NCBI GenBank assembly: GCA_051294375.1
Contig: JBJCIZ010000229.1
Coordinates: forward strand, 1-11,340
Direction of reading: 5' to 3'
Source of the DNA: Paraspadella gotoi
Lineage: Eukaryota > Animalia > Chaetognatha
DNA length: 11,340 bases
Under the pieces are notes generated by a model. That model made no database searches. It was not told the origin of the DNA and worked only from the letters and a program-made list of their open reading frames with translations. The translations under genes were made by a program, and so were the position numbers. Shown here in pieces: positions 1-11,340 of this stretch. Within the stretch, counting starts at the first letter, position 1, and each line of letters starts with the position of its first letter.

Positions 1-1558
1 GGAGAGAGGACAGACACAAGCGCTCAGCACCACACTATCATCATACTCAACGGCCCTGGTGCGGGGACGCTACCGCGCACATTAGGCAAATGACGACGTA
101 GAGAGCGCGAAGTATTTCGCGAGTCTCCACTTCGGCCGGCAACATCATTTACCTTTGTCCGAGCACGTCTCTACTATTTTAGGCCGTTCACCATCAGCAG
201 CCGAACATCGAGAAAGGACGAAAGATGTTCACGCGTGCTTAGCGACGAAGAACGCTTTAACAGAGAGAGTTCCATCTAGAAGAACTCCCAAATGACAACC
301 GCACCATCGTAGTAGCGAGTCACGAAGGAGCCTGCTCTCCGGAGATATAGGAATTCCAAGCGGATCCCACTACGACGAGCCTTGCCAACTCCACAGCAGT
401 ACGCGAGACCGGGAAGGCACACGTGAGAATACACGAGATATTGCTTCGAACCGATACCCGCGCGAGTAAGGACAACGAGCGGAAGAGGACTTAAACCCTC
501 CTAGCACACGACGAACCGGAGGGATGTCCTTTTACGTGCCATTTCGGCCTTATTACGTTGCCCCAGGAACGCCGAGCAGGGCGTGCACGCGACCTATGTA
601 AGTCTATGAACATACTGCACCGGCCATTCTTGTAATCCGGTTCGCAGCACGACGGCACCCGTCTCACACGGTTGGGGCCACGCACTAATGAGAGTTCGAG
701 AGCAAGCGCACACGGCACAGCGGTAATGGCCGGGGAGAGAGACGCTGATAGTTAGTCGACCGACAGACCATGCACAAGCACGTGGCGGGTTCCAAAAGAG
801 GTATATATGACGCGGAGATAACTCAGCAATTTAAGCTTGGGAGTCGACGATTAATCTGGAGCGTGATTAAAAGTGCCGTACAAGGGCGGGGCCACACGTT
901 TACCGAGATCATCGGATTTCCCCGGGTGCGGAACGATCCAGACCGGTTCCCACAGCGTGAGCCGCATTGCCCACTGGAGACAGCTCGAGAGACAGGAATG
1001 GGATAACTAAACAGACGAGTTACAGCACGCTATGCGCTACCGTAATAAGTCACATATCTACACCTATAAACATGGAGCGTGGGGTTCCTTTGTGATTCGC
1101 AGGCCTTCATGTCGGCCTTTTTGTCTTTGCGGGGGAACGAGGTCTGTCTGTAGAGTGTTGCTCGCCAAGCGCGGAAAGGTAACCGCCAAAAGGGCACGCA
1201 GAAAGGAGCACCATAAAGTAAAGAGCTTAGTATTACACAGTACAATGAGACATCAGAATTCGGCATGAAACACGCCGATGATGCACAACAGGCGGACAAA
1301 AACATTTCTACACACCAGTAAAGAGCACATGAGATGCAATAAACTTCATCATTGGGTTTTCATTGAAATTTACCGAAACGTCCGCCAAAAATATCTACTT
1401 GGGGTGCTTAACGCATTAACAGAATCAGTATAAGAGCGTGAAGACATACTCAGAGTTTTCATCTTCCCGGGTCGCACTGCAACCTTTGCCTCGATTCGTA
1501 ACTTCTTCCTCTGGTCTGTAAGTCGAGTGCCCGTGAGTACCAGGAGAACTTAAGATCA
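1..1558 (-). repeat. 3' LTR, proximal (U3) portion; continues beyond position 1
   Basis: Minus strand reads PPT AGAGGGGA then TGATCTTAAGTTCT starting at 1558. This matches the reverse complement of the 5' LTR end (+ strand TGATCTTGAGATTCT at 11100-11114; 9/10, then TTCT after a 1-nt gap). No direct LTR-LTR overlap is visible in the window, so the call rests on these boundary signals. Confidence 0.7.
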
Positions 1559-1566
1559 TCCCCTCT
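1559..1566 (-). other. Polypurine tract (plus-strand primer)
   Basis: AGAGGGGA on the minus strand immediately before the TG that opens the inferred 3' LTR. It is short (8 nt) but G-rich and correctly placed. Confidence 0.65.
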
Positions 1567-2735
1567 ATACGTTTTTGCGTCACTATTAGGGATGGCGAGA
1601 CCTTCAGGGACTCAAGTAATACCGCTGAAATAACAGGATTGTCGCAGGAGATCCGTGTACTCCGAGAGCGAACGTACCATCTTCAATACTAAGAGAACTG
1701 TATGGGAACACACGAGAGAGGCGCAAATGTGAGAATCTATTTCCTATGTGCGGTAGTATACACTAGAGAGTAGCTACTGTGACGCTATGCATCACTAGTG
1801 GCGTAATGAAGGTCGAAACAAAATTACTCTCGAACACTAAACTTTTCCGGCGTAGATACTAATATCTCCAAATAATTTACTTAGACTACATTCTTGCAGG
1901 TCCCATTAGGGCTAGCGTCTTTGTTCTCGGAGCGGTTCGTCTGCCAGAATTGATATACTGATTGACAAAACGAACTACGTAAGAGGTGTGAACACTCGTA
2001 CCAATCTTTCAGAGTAGATATATCGTCCTATGCGAATACGCTGAGACACGAGCGCATCTGGCTCTGTAACTTCTCTGCGCAACGCACCAGCTAGGTCGGG
2101 AACGACCTACTATTTATATAAGGTGGCTATACAAAAGAAAGGTATATGATGTCTCTTAGATAGGTGCGTCGCATTCGCCCTTGACGTGTACACTTAGTGG
2201 AGAGTGCCCTTCCTACACAACTGTTCAGAGACACAAACACCAGTCCCAGACGGTATAGTTACCAGTACACAGGATGAACTACAGCGCAGCAGTCGCGTAG
2301 TATTCACTGCGAACACACTCGCGAGATGTATTACATAGGCTGAACATATATCTTGGGAGTTTCTCATCTGGGCTCACAATATACTCAGATGAGCGTTATA
2401 ACTGTATTTATTTGTAACAGAGTACATACAGACTTCTCTTTAATCTATTAGGAGGAACGAAAGTAATGAAAGTGCTACTTTATATTTTTTAGCATATGAT
2501 CAAGGTCTTCACAGCGATATTCTATACATACTAATAACACAGCGATAGTTCTCTTTTCGTCCTATCGGAAAGGATAGGGAATGGTAACAGTTGGATATTC
2601 ATATTATGAAACTGGGGTGTGTTGGTACATTTGGTTAGGAGAAGAGAGTTTTTCTTGTTTGGTTTGGAAGAAGAAGATTTTAACTTTTTGTGAAGGAGAT
2701 CAGACAGAAAGGATAAGTGGAACGAAGGTAAAGAA

Positions 2736-3064
2736 TTATTTTCTCTGTTCTTGTCGAGCTGTGCAGAACAGTAGAGTTCTGTCCAATGCCTTCTGATCTT
2801 CCAGTTGATTAAGTTTGTGTTGTTGAATTAAGATGTCTAAATGTTGTTGAATACCTTGTGTGGTGAATAAAATTGGGATTGTAAGATATGGGTTTGAGTA
2901 AGAGAATGTATTTGGGAAATGATTTTATCGGTTGAGAGAGATTTTATAATTGTAAGTGGAAGCTGAAAGGAAAGGATGGCTAAGAGGCAAGATAGAAAAG
3001 GTGTTGATAATGTTAAGTTTTTCCTTAAAATTTTGATCCTTGAAATAATTTGCGAAAAGTAAAA
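2736..3064 (-). pseudogene. Probable disrupted C-terminal extension of ORF3
   Basis: Removing one T from the run at 3061-3065 continues ORF3 as ..IILLFANYFKDQNFKEKLNIINTF.. to a TAA at 2925-2927. The same frame stays open for 62 more codons (..GIQQHLDILIQQHKLNQLEDQKALDR..) to TAA at 2736-2738. Confidence 0.4.
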
Positions 3065-4920
3065 ATTATTGAGAAAAGGTTTTTCTGATTGTTAAAATTT
3101 TTGGGCTTATTGATTAAGAGGTGTAAAATAGAAATTTCTGGTTTAATTTGTGAAGGAAATTGCATTTGGTAAAATAAGTAAAGAGGATCATCAGTCAATG
3201 TTTGATTTCCTACCAGTTCAGCAAAAAGTATCTTCCAGTCATCCTGTGCTGCATTTAGGCCAATTTCGGCTATGTGCGATCTTCTACTCGGGTCTGTGAT
3301 CATTTTTAAAATCTGAGCGAAAATTCTGTTTGACTTATAAAACGATGAGTTCTCTACAATCTTATCAATGCTATTTAGCGTTACTTGAAATAAATCTTCA
3401 TTATTGGATTCTTCTAAATTTTTAATTATTTGACTCTTAAATAATAAATTATTTTCTTCTGTTTCTTCATTTTGTTCCTTTATATTAATATCTTCTGCAT
3501 TTGGCAAATCGTCTATTGAATCGATTATAGTAATTGGAGACCAGTTACCTTCTTTTGGGGGATCGGGGAATAAGTCCACTTCTTTGGGTCTTATCTCAAG
3601 GCTGCAGGTTTCCTCAGTCGAAGAGACAATTGTTATCTTCTGAGCCGTTTCTGTGAAGGAGGAAATTATTTTTCTCTTTGTTCCCGCAGAAATGAGCGCC
3701 GAAGAAGAAGGGGCAACTGAAATCTGAGGAAAATTATTTGAGTCATTCTCATCAACTATAAATACCCGTTGGTCTTTTTGTTGATTCTGCTCTCTGTGTT
3801 TGTCTTCTAAATGTTCTGGAACAAGGTCTATTATCTTTTCTGGGGAGGGATCTTTGATCTGTTGTTGTGAGTCCTGGGCAAGAAAATAAGCATTTATCAA
3901 GTTAGAGTGATCAATTTTCAGTGGCAACTTTTGTTTAAAACCGCGCTCACCACCGACATTTATCGTTTCTACAATTGAATTTAAATCAAAATCGACTTCG
4001 AGTGTTTCCAAGGTCAAGATCAAACCGTGGAAAATTAAAAGATGAAGCCAAGAGTCTTGAGCGGCGTATCGCTTCATCTCTTCAGACCAATCTCCGCGCC
4101 CACGGAATTCACTGTTCCAATCTGACAAGGTGATCCGTTTATCTTTTTTCATCTTTATAGGCTTGACACTCGAGTCTGATGAGTATATGAAATCGAAAAT
4201 TTCTTTCATACCATAAATTGGTTTCAACTGTGAATCTGAGTATCCTTGTCTAAAGAAAAGTATTTTAAAGAAACGAGAAAGGTCAATGAGGCGCACGGAG
4301 TCAGGGTAGAGCACAAATTTTTCTTCTATTCCTAGCATGTCTCCCTCTGCATTGGCGGCAGTGAAGAGAATATTCGGGTGTTTAATGAGCAGATTGAATG
4401 ATGGTGGGAGATACATTTTGTGAGGGTTTTTAACATCGTATTTTATTGTTTTTCTTCCAGTGATACAGAAATCAGTTTGAATGACTATAGTGGCTGTTTC
4501 CTTCTTGTGAGTGCAGTAAGTCATCTGGATCACGCAAACTTTGTTATTCATGCCTTTCTTTAACTCACATTCAGTGTCTATTCCAATTACTAGAGTTTTG
4601 TTTATTTCCTGAAGTTTATCAGCTACGCGAATAATTTTCTTCATTTCTAAAGATAACATATTTTTGTCTTTTATAATTTTAACTGTATTCATGTCCAAAT
4701 AAATCCTATTTATTTCACCCTTTTTCAGTAGGTTTTCTTCTTCCAAGAGAATATTCGTACTCTTTTCTTCGAGTTTCTTCATTTTGTTCTTCCCTGAACT
4801 ACTTTTCTTTTTCTTTTTCTTTGACCTTGATTCCGAGAACTTACTCACAAAGATGGGCGCATTTTCGTCTTCGGACCATAGGTTCTCAGAGTCTTCATGA
4901 TCTTTGTTCTCCGTTGACAT
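3025..4920 (-). CDS. ORF3: DnaQ-like DEDDy 3'-5' exonuclease (WRN-exo/EXD/MUT-7-like) with basic NLS-like N-terminus, low-complexity linker and helical C-terminal region
   Basis: ExoI VIGIDTEC (D115, E117), VCVIQM strand, ExoII NAEGDMLGI (D194), LIDL, and ExoIII LSDW..SEEMKRYAAQDSW (Y285, D289). Domain spans about 4006-4683. SRSKKKKKK at aa 31-39. 631 aa open frame with AAAATG start context. Confidence 0.88.
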   Translation of the reverse strand: MSTENKDHEDSENLWSEDENAPIFVSKFSESRSKKKKKKSSSGKNKMKKLEEKSTNILLEEENLLKKGEINRIYLDMNTVKIIKDKNMLSLEMKKIIRVADKLQEINKTLVIGIDTECELKKGMNNKVCVIQMTYCTHKKETATIVIQTDFCITGRKTIKYDVKNPHKMYLPPSFNLLIKHPNILFTAANAEGDMLGIEEKFVLYPDSVRLIDLSRFFKILFFRQGYSDSQLKPIYGMKEIFDFIYSSDSSVKPIKMKKDKRITLSDWNSEFRGRGDWSEEMKRYAAQDSWLHLLIFHGLILTLETLEVDFDLNSIVETINVGGERGFKQKLPLKIDHSNLINAYFLAQDSQQQIKDPSPEKIIDLVPEHLEDKHREQNQQKDQRVFIVDENDSNNFPQISVAPSSSALISAGTKRKIISSFTETAQKITIVSSTEETCSLEIRPKEVDLFPDPPKEGNWSPITIIDSIDDLPNAEDINIKEQNEETEENNLLFKSQIIKNLEESNNEDLFQVTLNSIDKIVENSSFYKSNRIFAQILKMITDPSRRSHIAEIGLNAAQDDWKILFAELVGNQTLTDDPLYLFYQMQFPSQIKPEISILHLLINKPKNFNNQKNLFSIIFTFRKLFQGSKF

Positions 4921-4928
4921 TTTCGCGT

Positions 4929-4985
4929 CTGAAAAGCGGTTCCCTGAGCAAAATGATAAAACATAAGGGGTAAGAAAGGTTAATT
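4929..4985 (-). promoter_or_regulatory. Putative 3' splice acceptor for ORF3
   Basis: Minus strand reads TTAAC, a pyrimidine-rich tract (CTTTCTTACCCCTTATGTTTTATCATTTT), then CTTTTCAG ending at 4929, 8 nt before the ORF3 ATG. Confidence 0.5.
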
Positions 4986-5045
4986 AAGACATGTGAGGGA
5001 GAAAAAAATTTATAATAAAATAATAGAAGAATTAAAAAATAATAT

Positions 5046-6119
5046 TTATTTGTCCGGAGTACTACTTTCTGCTTCATCATTAGCATGAAATGAACTTAGA
5101 GAAATAGTACGAATTGTGTCTGGGTCATTTAGCATTGAAAAACCAGCAAGACCAGGAGTAAAACTACTACTANNNNNNNNNNNNNNNNNAGATGGGTCTT
5201 CATCTCTTTCTAGAGATCGGTCAAGGTCTTTTATAAAATCAAAACCATCTTCATCATCTTGTAATTCATTACTTAATTTACGAAATATATTTTGCATACT
5301 AGTTTCAGAATCTTTAGTTTTAGATCTTTTTATGGTGAAAGAATTATCACTTGTTTTAGGTTTTCTTTTTCTTAAATTATAAGAGGTTTCTCTCGATTCT
5401 ATAGGTTTTCTATTTTTTAAAGAGTTACCATTATTATTTAAAGAATTATCTATTTGAGGAGTTATGTTGCTTGGCAACAGGATCTCAAGATCATCGGAAA
5501 TTCTCGAGGGTCCCGGTTCGGGACTCAAGTTGATGATTGGTTCAGATTGTAAAGGTGGAGAACCTGTGGGAGATTGGAAAGGTGATTCTGGTGAATCGGG
5601 AGGTTGAAGATCAGGTGATGGAGGAGGAGTAGCGTTATGATGGTCATTAGAGAAAGAGTCAAAGGATAGAGCAGCTAAGAGGAAAGCCTTTTGTTTAGAT
5701 CTTGTCATCATCTGGTGGGATGGTGATAACGTTTGTGTTGGTTTCTTTAAGATGGTTGATGGTAGAAGAGTATTAATCGTAGGTGGTGAACGATCTTTAG
5801 GTATGGTATAAAGTTTTAGTTGATTATGATGTTTAGTGGAAATTTTTCCAGATCGACTTTCACACTTGTAGTTCACTGTTGGTTTTCCATCCAATCTTTC
5901 TTTAGTTTTAACAATGACAGATGGTCCACTCCAGTTGGGAGTGAGCTTTTCATGAATATTCCGAGGTTGGAATTCCCAGACTTTATCTCCTTCTTTATAA
6001 GGTTTGTATTTCATATGTTTGTCATATTCTTGTTTTTGTTTCTCTTTAGCTAAGTCCATTTCATGTTTGATAGTTTTTAAAGTAGAGTTGAAATGTTGAT
6101 TTATATTTTCTATGTATTC
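5046..6119 (-). CDS. pol: pol, segment 3: integrase C-terminal region (GPY/F-like module) and long Pro/Ser-rich tail; no chromodomain
   Basis: The frame is open from 6119 (EYIENINQHF..MDLAKEKQKQEYDK), then YKEGDKVW..KLTPNWSGP..V..NY..HHNQLKLY. Joined to segment 2 by a frameshift near 6120. Confidence 0.85.
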   Translation of the reverse strand, partial: EYIENINQHFNSTLKTIKHEMDLAKEKQKQEYDKHMKYKPYKEGDKVWEFQPRNIHEKLTPNWSGPSVIVKTKERLDGKPTVNYKCESRSGKISTKHHNQLKLYTIPKDRSPPTINTLLPSTILKKPTQTLSPSHQMMTRSKQKAFLLAALSFDSFSNDHHNATPPPSPDLQPPDSPESPFQSPTGSPPLQSEPIINLSPEPGPSRISDDLEILLPSNITPQIDNSLNNNGNSLKNRKPIESRETSYNLRKRKPKTSDNSFTIKRSKTKDSETSMQNIFRKLSNELQDDEDGFDFIKDLDRSLERDEDPSXXXXXXSSSFTPGLAGFSMLNDPDTIRTISLSSFHANDEAESSTPDK

Positions 6120-6486
6120 TTACAGATGTTTTTGGGTTTTGTGAAGGTATAATTTGGTTCAAAGGAATGTTTGCTTCATAACCATGGCGCATAAAGAAAG
6201 GTGTTTGTTTAGTTGTACTATGAGGTGTGGTGTTCATTGCATATTGCAGTAAGGGTAATTGTTTGGGCCACTGCTTGTCTTCTTGAAGAAGACGTTTGGT
6301 GAGTTCAGAAATAATTGAACGGTTTTTTCTTTCTGTGGCGCCTTGTGACTGGGGATGATAAGGGGTGGAATGGGATTTCTTGATGTTTAAAAATTTGCAT
6401 AAAATTTGCATAATTTCGTTTTCAAATTCACCTCCACAATCAGTTGTAAATGACTCTGGAGGACCGTGTCTTAAAATGAAATCTTG
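6120..6486 (-). CDS. pol: pol, segment 2: integrase catalytic core (second D and E of DDE)
   Basis: QDFILRHGPPESFTTDCGGEF..STPYHPQSQGATERKN..W..L..YAMNTTPHSTTKQTPF is a canonical rve core. Frameshifted from segment 1 at the homopolymer 6487-6490. Confidence 0.92.
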
Positions 6487-9400
6487 AAAATGCATTAGCA
6501 ATCTCTTCTGCTGTTTTTGTTTTTGTCGCATAAAGTTCCGTCCACTTTGTGAACAAATCTGTTATGACCAGGACATAATTAAATCCTTTATGAGATGTTG
6601 GCAATTTGAGGAGATCTGCTTGTATTTGTTGCATTGGTCTTGTGACCTCTATTGTAATAAGAGGAGCCTTGTTTGGTGGGTTAGGTTCTCTTAAGCACTG
6701 GCATTCGTAGCAGTTATTGACATATTTCTCAATGTCTGACCAAAGCTTTGGCCATATTGCGTGTTTAAGTATGGTTTGAACCATCTTTNNNNNNNNNNGG
6801 TGACCAGTGAAAGTATTTCCATGGGTTTGTTTAAGAATGGTGTTAACCAGCGTAGGTGGTATGATAGTTTGTAAAATTGGGTGGGAAAAATCGGGGTGCT
6901 TAATAGCTCGATATAAAATGTCATCTTTAACTTGCAATAGGGGATATTGCTTCAAGAACCAATTATTAATAATTGTGTTGTGATCGGGCTTCTTTCTATT
7001 ATGGAGAAGCTTCTGTTGGATGACCGCGAGTATGTCTGGGTCGTTTCTTTGATGAGTAACGATGTCTTGAGCAGATTGTTCTTCAGACAATATGTTGACC
7101 AAATTGAGATCGTCAGCGTCCAAAGAACCAAGACAATAAGTTTCATGGTTGACGTGATCACTTTCTTCCTTTTCTATGTCATCTAAGATTTCTGACATGG
7201 TTGAAAGTTCCATTGAGTCTTTGTCTTGAATTAATGTGGCTTGAGTTTCCGTTTCTTCATGGGGGCGACGAGACATTGCATCTGCATCTCCAATGTTTTT
7301 GCCTGGGCAATGGAGTAAAGTGAAAGAGAAAGTGTTGAGAAAAATTGCCCAACGTGTTCTTCTTCCTGTTGGATCCTTATTGAGATCTTGTTTATTCCAT
7401 CCAAGTAATGGTTTGTGATCAGTGATTGCCGTAAAGTGTTTGTTGGCCAAATAATGGCGGTAAGCTTTGATCCAATTATATAGAGAGAAAAATTCTCGGT
7501 CAAAGGTTGACCAGTTCTGTTGCCTTTCTGAGAGCTTTTTAGAATCATAACAAATGACTTTCTCTTTTTCATGTTTTTGTAATAAGACCATGCCTATGGC
7601 TTCGTTGCTGGCATCTGTTCTTATGATAAATTCTTTGTTGAAATCTGGGTAAGCAACAATGGCTTCGGATGTTAGAGCTTGAATAAGTTGTTGAAAACTT
7701 GATTCACAATTCTTGTCCCAGTTGAAGGGAATTTCCTTTTTTGTGAGATCTGTAAGTGGTGCTGCAATTTTTGAGAAGTCTTTGATGAAATGCCTGTAAA
7801 ATGAGGCTAAACCCAGAANNNNNNNNNNCTCTTTAACGTTTTTTGGTGTTGGCCAAGATTTAATCTTTTCCACATTTTTTGGGTTAGGGGAGATGCCCTC
7901 ACCAGAAAGGAGAAAACCAAGACTAACTACTTTACTTCTACAGAAGAACGATTTTTGGGGGTGAAGTTTGAGATTAGCGTTTTCAATTGCTGTGAGGACC
8001 TTGTCCAATGTCTTAAGATGGGTACGATAATCCAGAGAAGCTACCAGGATATCATCCAAGAAGGTAAGAAGATGTTCTGGAGGAAAGTCCTTGAAAATTA
8101 ATTGCATCATTGCATTCATTGTTGATGTAGAGTTGATTTCGCCCATGGGGCAACGACACATTTCCCAGTGTCTTGTTGGTGTGCTAAAGGCATAGAATTT
8201 TCTGTGTGATTGAGCAATAGGGATCTGATAGAAACCTTTAAGAAGATCCATTTGAGAGAATATTTTACCTTTTATTCTTTGTAAGCAATCCGAAATATGT
8301 TCCATAGGGTAGTGATACTTTTCTGATTGGGCATTGAGTTTTCTTAGATCCACGACAAATCTGTCTTTTCCATCTTTCTTTGGAACAAGAATGATAGGAA
8401 AGTTGTATGGGCTTTCAGATGGTTGACAAATTCCTTCTTCCCACATTTGGTCAACTTTCTTCTCTATTCTTTGTGCCATTTCAGGTGTACAGCGAAATTG
8501 AGGAACTCTGATAGGAGGGCCAGGTTTTAATTTGCAATAATGCTTGGCTAAAGTAGCTTTGCCCATGTCTTTCTCATGCCATGCAAAGGCTTTTGTATGT
8601 TTAACTTTTAAAAGATTCTCTAATTCTTGAGGGTCCTCGCCCTCTGGAATTTCAGCTTGAGATAGATCCAATGTAAATTGTGTAGTTTCCGTAGTGGATG
8701 CAGCAAATTTAGATGACTCCTTGTCATCAATCGGCTTTGAAAGGTCATCCAATAAGGAGAAAAAAGTGAAATTGTCGGAGTGCAAATCATCATAAAAGTC
8801 AAAAAATGATAAAAACATGTCTTGATTTATGACTACAGGAGTGGGGAGACAATTAAGAACTTCCACATATGTTATTCCTTCATCAATGAGTGACAAAGAG
8901 GCGCCGACCAGAATTCCTTGCGCAGGCGAGTGGTTTGAAGGGTCTGTGATAATTGTGGATTTACTAATCTTCTGTAAAGTACGAGGATGAGTATGTATGA
9001 TAGATTTTATTGGCATACGCGAGTAGGGTGGAACAACAACAGTTTCATAGGTAGACAGATGAGGTGGAATATCAGGAGAAAGGCTTTTAAGAAAAGGGAT
9101 TTTTGTGGTTTTGATTTGGAGTTCAGATTTATCAAGGTCGATGATAGCTTTGTGATAGCAGAGAAAATCCCAGCCTAGGACAATTGGCTTAACTAATCCT
9201 CTCATGACTCTGGCGTTGACTGAAAAATGAGTATTGTTGATCGAGAATTGTAACTGAATGAGTCCTAAAGTGACAATACTTGAGCCATCTATTGAGTGTC
9301 CTACATTAGTTTGAGGTTGAAAAGGGACATGCTGAAGATGAGGTGTCCTTTGAATAAAAGCTTCTGCAATACAAGTTGTGGAGCAACCTGTGTCTACAAG

Positions 9401-9535
9401 AGTAAGTATGGATTCTTTTCCAACTGTGACATAAATTTCTGAAATAATATCCGGTTTGGTGATGGATTTGAGAGGAGCCAACTTTTGATCTCCGACTATA
9501 TTGTGGCTCACCATATGGTCGGTTGCTAGAAATCC
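6487..9535 (-). CDS. pol: pol, segment 1: aspartic protease, reverse transcriptase, RNase H, integrase HHCC and first catalytic Asp
   Basis: PR LVDTGC (D at 9394) and IVLGWDFL. RT PIILVPKKDGKDRFVVDLRKLN, MDLLKGFYQI, CPMG, FLDD (8051-8062). RNase H TDAS, RE, TDH, ADAMSR. IN H..GH..CYEC and IQADLL. The frame opens at 9535, -1 relative to gag; first ATG at 9514. Confidence 0.97.
9475..9535 (-). promoter_or_regulatory. -1 programmed ribosomal frameshift signal (slippery heptamer plus H-type pseudoknot)
   Basis: G GAT TTC (9535-9529) lies right before the gag TAG, followed by a 6-nt spacer. Stem 1 is CCGAC-C-ATAT/ATAT-A-GTCGG (9522-9513 with 9501-9492). Loop GAGCCA (9509-9504) pairs with TGGCTC (9480-9475). 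Confidence 0.8.
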
Positions 9536-10801
9536 TCATTGTGTTGGGTTTTAGATGGGTGAGGAGAGTCTCTGCGTAGATTTCTGTGTGGTGAATTCCT
9601 TTCTCTTGAGTTCCTAGTGTTTGCATAAGTGGATGGGCTATTGGGCTGTTGGTTGCCTCTGAATTGTTCTGAGTCTCTGTGGCTTTTAGAGTACTCATCT
9701 CTGTTCCACTTATCATTGTTTCTGTCTTCAAATTCCAATTTGCCTACAAATTGTGGTCGGTCTCTGTCTTCACGATAGTTCGAATAATCTCTCCTTTGGT
9801 AAGGATACCTAGGGCTGCTTTGACCATNNNNNNNNNNGTTTCTGGGATCTCTCGGGCTTTGTCGATATCTATCTCTTGGGCTGCGGTAGTTTCTGTCTCT
9901 GTAATCTCTATTATAGTCTCTTGAATTATCTCGATTGTCATAACGATAACGGCGATCTTCATATCTATCAAAGGGCATGCGATCATCCCTATAACGAGAT
10001 CTGTCAAAGCTTGGTGAGCGATATCTATCTCTTCTGCTCCTATCGGATTTTAGTTCCTCTAGCATAGCAGTAATGCTTGCATTGGTTTCCTTTTGAGTTT
10101 CCAAATTCTGCTTGTAAGTGAGATCCAATTGGGATATTTTCTCAGAGAGATTGTCGATTTCGTTGTCTCTCATTGCTGCGCCAGTGAAGGAAACACGTTG
10201 TGGGCCTGTTATTCCAGCCCATGCTGCGGCAATGGGTGGTCTTCCTTCAAACTTGGTAAGCATTTCTTGCCATTTCTTGCCATTTCTCGGCTCTTTCACG
10301 AGCCTTAGTTATGTTGTAGGTTCTAGGAGGTAGACCTACATCAACAAAACTTTGGTAATCTTGAGGCAATCCGGCTATGAATCTTTTATGGATCTCTTGA
10401 GTGAAAAGTTCAGGATTTTGTGCAACGAGTGGATGAAGTGTGCGGGTATCAGTGATGACTTGATTCTCAAAAACATGAAGAGGGACTTCTCCATCCCATT
10501 TCAAAGCGTCGATGTTGTCCTGGAACTTCTGTTTTCTGGATGGATCAGATAATTTGAGAATGAGCTCAGCTTTAAGAGCTGGCCAATTATTTCTGTTGTC
10601 AGAACCTTCGAAGATTTTTAGAGCTAAATCATCCAATTTTGTTGGTAAGTATTTGAGATAGGCATTCAGCTTGACTTGATTGGTGGCATCATCTGGGAGC
10701 GCTGCAACTACGGCAAGAACATATTTAGTTAACCATGTTTCTATGTCCTGCTTGTCGGTGTAGGAGAATGGTTTTATATCAATCTTCCTGAAGGAACTCA
10801 T
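9526..10801 (-). CDS. gag: gag (about 421 aa once a 10-bp duplication is removed); capsid-like N-half, coiled coil, Arg/Asp/Ser-rich C-terminus, no CCHC knuckle
   Basis: Position upstream of pol. IKPF..DIETWLTKY start and NWPALKAEL..RFIAGLP helical motifs are typical of Gypsy Gag. The two ORF-track pieces share KWQEM and join in frame when one repeat unit at 10261-10280 is removed. Confidence 0.85.
10261..10287. repeat. 10-bp tandem duplication (CATTTCTTGC x2.7) that frameshifts gag
   Basis: catttcttgc catttcttgc catttct read directly from the sequence. Confidence 0.9.
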
Positions 10802-11087
10802 GGTTGGTTATGGAAAGGAAAGATTATGGGAATTATAATAAAATAAAAGAGGGAAGATTGAGATGAGTAATGATTGACTGAAAAACAGCCAAAACCCAAT
10901 ATCAAGATAAAAATGAAAATATAATAAAAGAGATATATTTTATGAGAGAAAAGACAGAAGGATGTAAACCTCTGTATGTGAAATTTTGAGCTTAAGCAAA
11001 GCACGTCCTGAAGTTGTGGTTGGTCGGTTATAATAGATGATTAATTCAGTATGGAACAGGATAAGACGAGCAATAGGTGACATTGTC

Positions 11088-11099
11088 AACAGCCCGCCA
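11088..11099 (-). other. Primer-binding site (TGGCGGGCTGTT..)
   Basis: TGG (complement of tRNA CCA) immediately follows the ..AAGATCA LTR end, about 300 nt upstream of the gag ATG. The cognate tRNA is not identified. Confidence 0.65.
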
Positions 11100-11340
11100 T
11101 GATCTTGAGATTCTGTTTCCGAGATATATAGTTTATAATAAAATCAATATTATATACCAATACTAAAAGGCACTGTTTGTTTACTAATTACGAAAATGTG
11201 AAAAATATTGTTCCATTTCTTTGTCTTAAAGGGGAACAAAATTACGGCCCAATAACGAATTAACTCTAAAAGCTCATGATAAAAGCTTCAATAAATTGGC
11301 GTTGCAAAGATAGAAATTGCTGAAGAATAGCTGGAGCTAC
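11100..11340 (-). repeat. 5' LTR, distal (U5) portion; continues beyond the window
   Basis: Ends in CA on the minus strand directly before the PBS. Its terminal 10-14 nt are an inverted repeat of the sequence following the PPT. AT-rich and non-coding. Confidence 0.7.

Follow-up and report, generated by a model that had tools for sequence, protein, structure and literature searches.

We found that the window, by which we mean the whole stretch of 11,340 nt that was analyzed, contains a retrotransposon whose third gene, ORF3, very probably is genuine cargo of the element's clade and encodes an exonuclease domain. As read in the present copy, ORF3 comprises 631 codons on the minus strand (3025..4920), the strand that also carries gag and pol, and its ATG lies 125 nt after the pol stop, as the first-pass annotation had described. 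The five catalytic residues named in that annotation are all in place on the minus strand, namely, D115 (4578-4576) and E117 (4572-4570) of ExoI, D194 (4341-4339) of ExoII, and Y285 (4068-4066) and D289 (4056-4054) of ExoIII, and the resulting signature (D-x-E in ExoI, D in ExoII, and Y-x3-D in ExoIII) is that of a DEDDy (DnaQ-like) nuclease.

Pfam, the motifs, and a structural model all point to a DEDDy 3'-5' exonuclease domain at aa 101-301 (4018..4620, minus strand). This region matches the Pfam family DNA_pol_A_exo1 (PF01612) with an E value of 3.2e-5 and 24.2 bits, above the cut-off of 23.6. A single-sequence model of ORF3 reached a pLDDT of 33.5, and a model of aa 61-350 from an alignment with 11 relatives reached a pLDDT of 80.6 and a pTM of 0.84 and has a DEDDy fold. 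Foldseek ranked the WRN exonuclease first for the modeled domain (E 5.9e-7), followed by Nibbler, RRP6, and EXD2, and a second structure aligner put the Nibbler EXO domain (Z 17.7; rmsd 3.2; 204 aligned residues) and WRN (Z 17.5; rmsd 2.6) in an effective tie, with RNase D, RRP6, and Egalitarian (Z 16.0) as further neighbors and many DEDDy structures at Z 17.7-13. Both the domain search and the structure prediction that had been proposed as checks are therefore in line with the original assignment to the WRN/EXD/MUT-7(Nibbler)/Egalitarian type of DEDDy nuclease, and the model places the domain among the DEDDy exonucleases with the fold common to WRN, Nibbler, EXD, and RNase D. Identity to all solved fold neighbors is low (11-20%), so that the assignment reaches the DEDDy family and not a particular donor lineage, and because WRN ties with Nibbler, the fold cannot separate an RNA from a DNA substrate. 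PDB sequence searches with ORF3, with its alignment, with the N-terminal part of the distant homologue P0028, and with the pair of P0028 and another homologue, P0002, gave nothing meaningful, and an NCBIfam search gave no match.

Outside the catalytic domain, the N terminus of ORF3 is acidic and then basic, and it includes the poly-Lys motif reported earlier, a patch of six lysines (aa 34-39; 4804..4821, minus strand) whose function as a nuclear signal is putative; basic N-terminal stretches also occur in the homologues P0004, P0005, P0006, P0012, P0016, and P0028. An acidic, polar, and poorly conserved linker (aa 350-495; 3436..3873, minus strand) is followed by a conserved domain that appears helical by eye (aa 496-608; 3097..3435, minus strand) and is common to P0002 (z 10.2) and, weakly, to P0028 (z 2.5). 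No clear transmembrane helix was found in the 631 aa present, where hydropathy over 19 residues does not exceed 1.39, as had also been claimed.

The rest of the element is of a familiar kind. Its pol gene (5046..9535, minus strand) encodes PR, RT, RNase H, and integrase in this Pfam order, followed by a long low-complexity tail, and the best solved relative of its RT is Ty3 RT (E 2e-34), ahead of the foamy and MLV RTs, so by pol order and closest RT the element is Ty3/gypsy at the sequence level. The gag gene (9526..10807, minus strand) is homologous to those of the metagenome loci L003, L004, and L006; no CCHC knuckle was found in it, and neither of its two pieces contains a Cys. In the present copy, gag occupies two frames and pol three, with pol breaks near 6440-6561 and 6061-6119, and these frame breaks are probably errors of the copy, since at least those in pol fall where contigs from sequencing runs differ by indels. 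A conserved spacer of ~125 aa separates PR from RT, and it gave a weak Pfam dUTPase match in one of five members (E 0.018) and no dUTPase in a PDB profile search. The leader at the 5' end (10808..11340, minus strand) reaches the end of the window, and since run contigs extend 319-851 nt past that end, the 5' LTR, if present, is outside the window. Both element ends lie outside the usable window, and hence no LTR, PBS, PPT, or target-site duplication can be read. Run contigs also contain a joined form that skips a stretch of 3,440 nt (6529..9968); it occurs in four of four runs, with 28-30 letters on the short side only, and loose ends occur in three of three. The joined form is likely a non-autonomous deletion derivative that lacks PR, RT, and RNase H.

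The left part of the window has a different origin. Positions 1..2614 (plus strand) are foreign DNA, a noisy copy, rich in insertions, that corresponds to bases 1-1446 of a 1.9-kb sequence that has been filed as five bacterial "plasmid" records, 100% alike, from three genera (Salmonella, Weissella, and Acinetobacter). All nine 300-nt blocks of this part align to the 1.9-kb sequence in order and on one strand, five of them well above shuffles and four barely; the whole of 1-2614 scores 857, against 366 +/- 20 for shuffled and 277 for element DNA, and the insertion-rich copy spans 106-2614. Repeated letters are depleted in 1-2614 (z -4.0), compared with values of +2.7 to +4.4 in the element. A sequence that is identical across genera and insertion rich here is most simply explained as a long-read spike-in control, which we consider likely from these comparisons; Nanopore controls that ended up in GenBank as plasmids have been reported (PMC12288876), and a PacBio control record exists (MG551957.1; PMC9032958).

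The stretch was present in 9 of 11 listed runs, which come under one organism label from three studies, and contigs were compared for seven of these nine and for one control run from another organism. All seven cover the window only from position 2615, where their contigs continue with the same other sequence, and the control run yielded a 37-nt scrap only. The window is chimeric at 2615, with the element joined to foreign DNA. The contaminant in the left 2.6 kb misled the first-pass annotation, which had placed ORF3 inside a PPT/LTR boundary and next to a structured RNA. The window has no long direct repeat, downstream of ORF3 there is no purine tract of at least 10 followed by TG, and neither an Rfam match at an E value of up to 1 nor a tRNA match was found in the window. 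Positions 2615-3024 fold no better than shuffles (z -0.46), and the best-folding block (2251-2400; z -3.7, best of 40 blocks) sits in the foreign DNA. As 1-2614 is foreign, the PPT, LTR, and structured RNA of that reading are not features of the element.

A chimeric window in which no LTR encloses ORF3 would also be expected if ORF3 were a host gene or neutral passenger brought beside pol by chance or misassembly, but we regard this as very unlikely. Short-read contigs from other runs bridge pol and ORF3 in at least five of seven runs (X1, X6, X8, X2, and X7, and not X5 or X9 among the contigs listed), even though the seven do not count as independent, since X1 and X2 are one sample and X6/X7 and X8/X9 have near-identical contigs. 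Moreover, ORF3 is free of introns over 1.8 kb, the sequence searches brought up no named host protein as a relative, and a second element of the clade, L003, carries a homologue. The placement of ORF3 as the third gene of a Gypsy element thus stands, and the bridging contigs together with the homologue in L003 speak against the one-off insertion that had been raised as an objection; the concern about a chimeric assembly was justified for the junction at 2615 and, judging by these contigs, hardly for the join of pol to ORF3. Relative to run contigs, the substitutions listed comprise two synonymous and two nonsynonymous changes in ORF3, none of them at catalytic codons, seven and one in PR-RT, and four and two in the integrase tail, which are too few for dN/dS.

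The length of 631 aa given for ORF3, on the other hand, has to be revised. The homologue P0002 (835 aa; 41% identical) aligns with ORF3 aa 76-608 and then with another frame beyond the stop, where window positions 3077-2883 are homologous to P0002 aa 465-534. This part belongs to an error-rich element end with a broken continuation of ORF3 (2615..3170, minus strand), which shows numerous indels and substitutions against the run contigs and contains the last ~50 ORF3 codons, whereas most listed pieces outside 3170-2615 are at least 99% like the run contigs. The homology past the stop implies that the stop is a truncation and, if ORF3 is collinear with P0002, that the natural protein would be about 990 aa long. 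Its predicted end lies ~630 nt past the junction at 2615, where one run contig has 612 nt, and the C-terminal third of the full protein is known from homologues only. Taken together, ORF3, P0002, and P0028 suggest an architecture of a basic N terminus, a DEDDy domain, a variable acidic linker, and a conserved C-terminal half of ~450 aa. By Atlas features, the C-terminal 245 aa of P0002 lie closest to EXD1-like and further PF01612 clusters (0.92; 23 of 30 matches), a result that used 152 of 256 features where the usual minimum is 170. By eye this region is without the ExoI acidic pair, and comparing profiles of the first exonuclease domain and its suspected counterpart gave no signal above shuffles, so that a second, catalytically dead exonuclease fold is perhaps present at the C terminus and is offered as a lead only.

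In total, 12 relatives of ORF3 were found among 1.84 billion representatives, and the nine of these that were looked up are all unnamed. Of the homologues that cover the respective motif, six of seven retain the D-x-E of ExoI, 7 of 10 the ExoII D, and four of six both the Y and the D of ExoIII; P0004, with its cluster mate P0015, and P0009 have lost catalytic residues. That catalytic motifs were kept while the linker diverged is counted here as a probable sign of protein-level selection on the ORF3 family. A word-index search with ORF3 aa 60-350 had no match and one with P0002 returned P0002 alone, and scans of loci with the exonuclease as query found no relatives in viral contigs or metagenome contigs.

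By RT, the closest relatives comprise 11 Pol proteins with 45-49% identity in this domain and, at 44-47%, five metagenome loci (L003-L007) out of 78. In a 66-row tree from a quick search, which included L003 as P0025 and left out L007 as too short, the window and 14 close rows fall on one side of a branch with an SH-aLRT value of 93. Among the five close loci only L003 is testable, four of the five ending inside pol or at most 102 nt from it. L003, whose RT is 46% identical to that of the window element, carries gag, pol, and the 1,358-codon ORF P0028, all on one strand. The motifs of P0028 are in register with those of ORF3 (D-T-E, a Glu at ExoII, and Y-G-A-S-D) at about 20% identity, and its comparison with the ORF3 exonuclease gave a z of 5.1 (0 of 300 shuffles) and a profile E value of 7e-4 with a probability of only 27%. 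The last 445 aa of P0028 align end to end with the C-terminal half of P0002 (19% over 439 columns; z 9.8; 0 of 400 shuffles), compared with z values of -1.1 to 0.8 in four controls, and the exonuclease regions of the same two proteins reached only z 2.4 (8 of 400 shuffles). P0028 has no Pfam exonuclease match and was also missed by the initial homology searches; rebuilt profiles, which contain L003 by construction, gave no match but L003 in 80 RT-bearing loci with 3,874 ORFs. On its contig, P0028 lies upstream of gag, both contig ends are C rich and do not overlap, and candidate PPT and PBS signals between P0028 and gag are non-unique (four and nine candidates). We infer that the contig is opened between pol and ORF3 (a circular permutation), which would make P0028 the third gene. 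The link of P0028 to the clade is a good one as far as these alignments go, and since an element at 46% RT identity has a distant ORF3 homologue beside gag-pol, the nuclease cargo is probably old in the clade.

Our best guess for the role of ORF3, a tentative one made by analogy and held at somewhat less than even probability, is that it trims RNA to counter host small-RNA silencing, in keeping with the counter-defense idea of the first-pass annotation. The protein of about 990 aa would carry the exonuclease domain with its five catalytic residues at its front and would be made separately, from a spliced or internally started subgenomic message, as env genes are. Such a message is likely because the gene is separate from pol and because both elements have an acceptor-like site. 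In the present element this is a CAG at 4944 in the 125-nt pyrimidine-rich spacer between pol and ORF3 (4921..5045, minus strand), with 12 of 16 pyrimidines, and it is weak, since 12 of the element's 200 YAG sites reach its score; the site before P0028 in L003 has 15 of 16 and ranks second of 396. No convincing splice donor was found. The conserved C-terminal half may bind RNA or RNP targets, much as the helical domain of Nibbler does, the exonuclease would act on RNA, and host small silencing RNAs or their precursors may be what is trimmed or destroyed. We favor a silencing-RNA target because a large separate protein with a nuclease at its front and a probable binding module resembles Nibbler/MUT-7. 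The helical N-terminal domain of Nibbler binds RNA and has been proposed to recruit Nibbler to Argonaute-bound RNA, the non-catalytic domains of Nibbler/MUT-7 bind RNA and aid trimming (PMC11347159), and an arenavirus exonuclease suppresses host innate signaling (PMC7968707). Counting against counter-silencing, the DEDDy ORF3s of bdelloid elements are described as not clearly related to copy number (PMC5408684).

It is also possible, if rather doubtful, that the exonuclease works within the life cycle of the element itself, trimming the 3' ends of its RNA, primers, or cDNA ahead of integration. The fold neighbors include RNase D, RRP6, and WRN, and 3'-end processing of element RNA was the role listed first by the authors of the 2017 bdelloid study (PMC5408684). 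The basic N-terminal patch would suit nucleic acid binding or nuclear entry in such a role, but a gene separate from Gag-Pol would need its own route into the particle, and none of the 11 related Pol proteins has a fused exonuclease by a domain profile of low sensitivity, the same that missed P0028. To our knowledge, most Ty3/gypsy elements replicate without such an exonuclease, which also speaks against this use.

Loss of catalytic residues in P0004 (with P0015) and P0009, which nevertheless stay in the family, raises the distinctly unlikely alternative that the protein is mainly an RNA-binding decoy or adaptor, similar to EXD1 or Egalitarian, with catalysis secondary. The EXD1-like features of the C-terminal part of P0002 and the presence of Egalitarian among the fold neighbors (Z 16.0) would fit this, whereas most homologues covering a given motif retain it, and P0028, at about 20% identity, still has D-x-E and Y-x3-D as well as an acidic residue at ExoII, which argues against a mainly non-catalytic role. 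Proofreading for the RT of an unusually long element draws little support and is highly improbable: the fold is of the DnaQ type, and the nidoviral exonuclease is a precedent that ties proofreading to genome size (PMC7968707), but the "long genome" is owed partly to the 2.6 kb of foreign DNA, ORF3 is separate from RT and most of its length is non-catalytic, and much larger gypsy elements have been described, in the text available of that source, without mention of an exonuclease (PMC6431247).

Returning to RNA trimming against host silencing, a more far-reaching version, unlikely as a whole, would make this an old, undescribed Ty3/gypsy clade with a tandem nuclease of 1,000-1,300 aa, in which an active DEDDy domain is coupled to a Nibbler/EXD-like helical and dead-exonuclease module that docks on Argonaute/PIWI-bound RNAs, so that piRNAs are destroyed or mis-trimmed. 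If this were true, the tandem nuclease would parallel, in an animal, the silencing suppressors of viruses, and if ORF3 acts on small RNAs at all, it would represent a protein-based counter-defense of a retrotransposon. The question of what exonuclease third genes do dates from 2017, and the canonical DEDD domain at ORF3 aa 61-350, which gives a good model and is undamaged in the window, makes substrate choice directly testable.

Several known systems share part of this arrangement. Tor elements were considered as a known match and set aside, the word "exonuclease" being absent from the available text of PMC4402516, as it is from PMC13524379. Like the env of errantiviruses and Tor elements, whose message arises by splicing or by internal initiation (PMC4402516), ORF3 is a third gene after pol, and unlike env it has no transmembrane helix or glycoprotein in the 631 aa present. 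The WRN exonuclease is 15-19% identical to the ORF3 domain, which is retroelement borne and comes without a helicase. MUT-7, Nibbler, and EXD3 resemble ORF3 in having a DEDDy domain (the Nibbler EXO domain giving the top Z of 17.7) within a multi-domain protein with a large non-catalytic part; identity is 15% to Nibbler and 13-19% to the solved members of this group. In these proteins, however, a HEAT-like domain precedes the active EXO domain, whereas in ORF3 only a short charged stretch comes before the active domain, whose start is near aa 70-100, and no match to the MUT7-C domain was found in P0001, P0002, or P0028.

The nearest counterparts are the bdelloid Ty3/gypsy-like LTR elements Juno1/2 and Vesta2/5, which carry a DEDDy ORF3 shared with Athena Terminons (Rodriguez, Kenefick, and Arkhipova 2017, PMC5408684), an account repeated in later reviews (PMC6338049 and PMC6431247). 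Their catalytic residues are intact (DEED), and that account demonstrates no function for them (PMC5408684). Juno and Vesta match the present element in having gag, pol (PR-RT-RH-IN), and a separate DEDDy third gene without a transmembrane helix, for which the same roles were proposed, and the idea that the arrangement might be undescribed is superseded by this 2017 report. Beyond it and the reviews, the literature covered, which excludes subscription journals, Repbase, and Dfam, gave no other third gene of the DEDDy kind in an LTR element and no assay. The bdelloid TelKA2n, a non-autonomous element without the gag end and most of pol that kept ORF3 (PMC5408684), recalls the joined form found here. 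On the other side, judged by published descriptions rather than sequence comparison, the bdelloid motif is DEED and that of ORF3 is DEDD (D194 at ExoII), with P0028 having a DEED-like E; Juno and Vesta have a dUTPase between PR and RT where the present element has none detected and one weak Pfam match among five members; and a CCHC knuckle is described in the Gag of all of them but Vesta1b and is absent from the present gag. Because of the missing CCHC, the DEDD motif, and the undetected dUTPase, we do not file the present element as Juno/Vesta. The ORF3 protein would measure about 990-1,330 aa here and has a conserved C-terminal half for which the available bdelloid account has no such domain (PMC5408684). 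DEDDy third-gene cargo is thus of a kind known since 2017 and the present clade seems to be a different one, so that exonuclease cargo is now seen outside the clades already described, and what seems new is a much larger multi-domain protein, with an exonuclease, a linker, a conserved domain, and perhaps a dead second exonuclease, in a clade whose Gag lacks the zinc knuckle.

A joined form of the element that lacks 3,440 nt (window 6529-9968), from the end of gag to the middle of the integrase, was present in all seven sequencing runs compared, although the shorter flank of the joint spans no more than 28-30 letters. The joint has 2 nt of shared letters and is not of the GT-AG type, and from it one contig of run X8 extends into ORF3. 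This form is likely a non-autonomous derivative that retains ORF3. A second joined form, skipping 694 nt within gag (window 9577-10270), was seen in two of four runs.

The structure model of the ORF3 exonuclease (window 4018-4620) matched predicted giant-virus 3'-5' exonucleases (E 2e-8, TM-score up to 0.56), and these matches, from moumouvirus, pithovirus, and Yasminevirus, were equal to those of cellular exonucleases. A viral donor of the domain is possible.

At the left end, window 1-2614 is a noisy copy of a sequence (L081, L082) shared at 100% identity by five tiny PLSDB "plasmids" from Salmonella (three), Weissella, and Acinetobacter, the Weissella record containing it as an inverted duplicate. 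It is likely a sequencing control that was deposited as a plasmid.

Among the ORF3 homologues, P0010 carries an EngA KH-like domain fused to an exonuclease fragment and probably reflects a chimeric contig or gene call. The contig of the related element L003 is C-rich at both ends (0.52 and 0.58 versus 0.23). Its distant ORF3 homologue, P0028 (L003:132-4205), has a long, charged, coiled-coil-like repeat that separates its exonuclease from the conserved C-terminal half (approximately aa 480-760) and is missing from ORF3 and its homologue P0002.

Pol proteins of this clade (window 5046-5810; P0017-P0027) end in a long low-complexity tail that follows the integrase, about 250 aa in the window element and about 500 aa in longer relatives, and that of P0020 includes a FLYWCH zinc finger. 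A conserved spacer of about 125 aa separates protease from RT (window 8756-9154), and it occupies the position held by a dUTPase in other elements.
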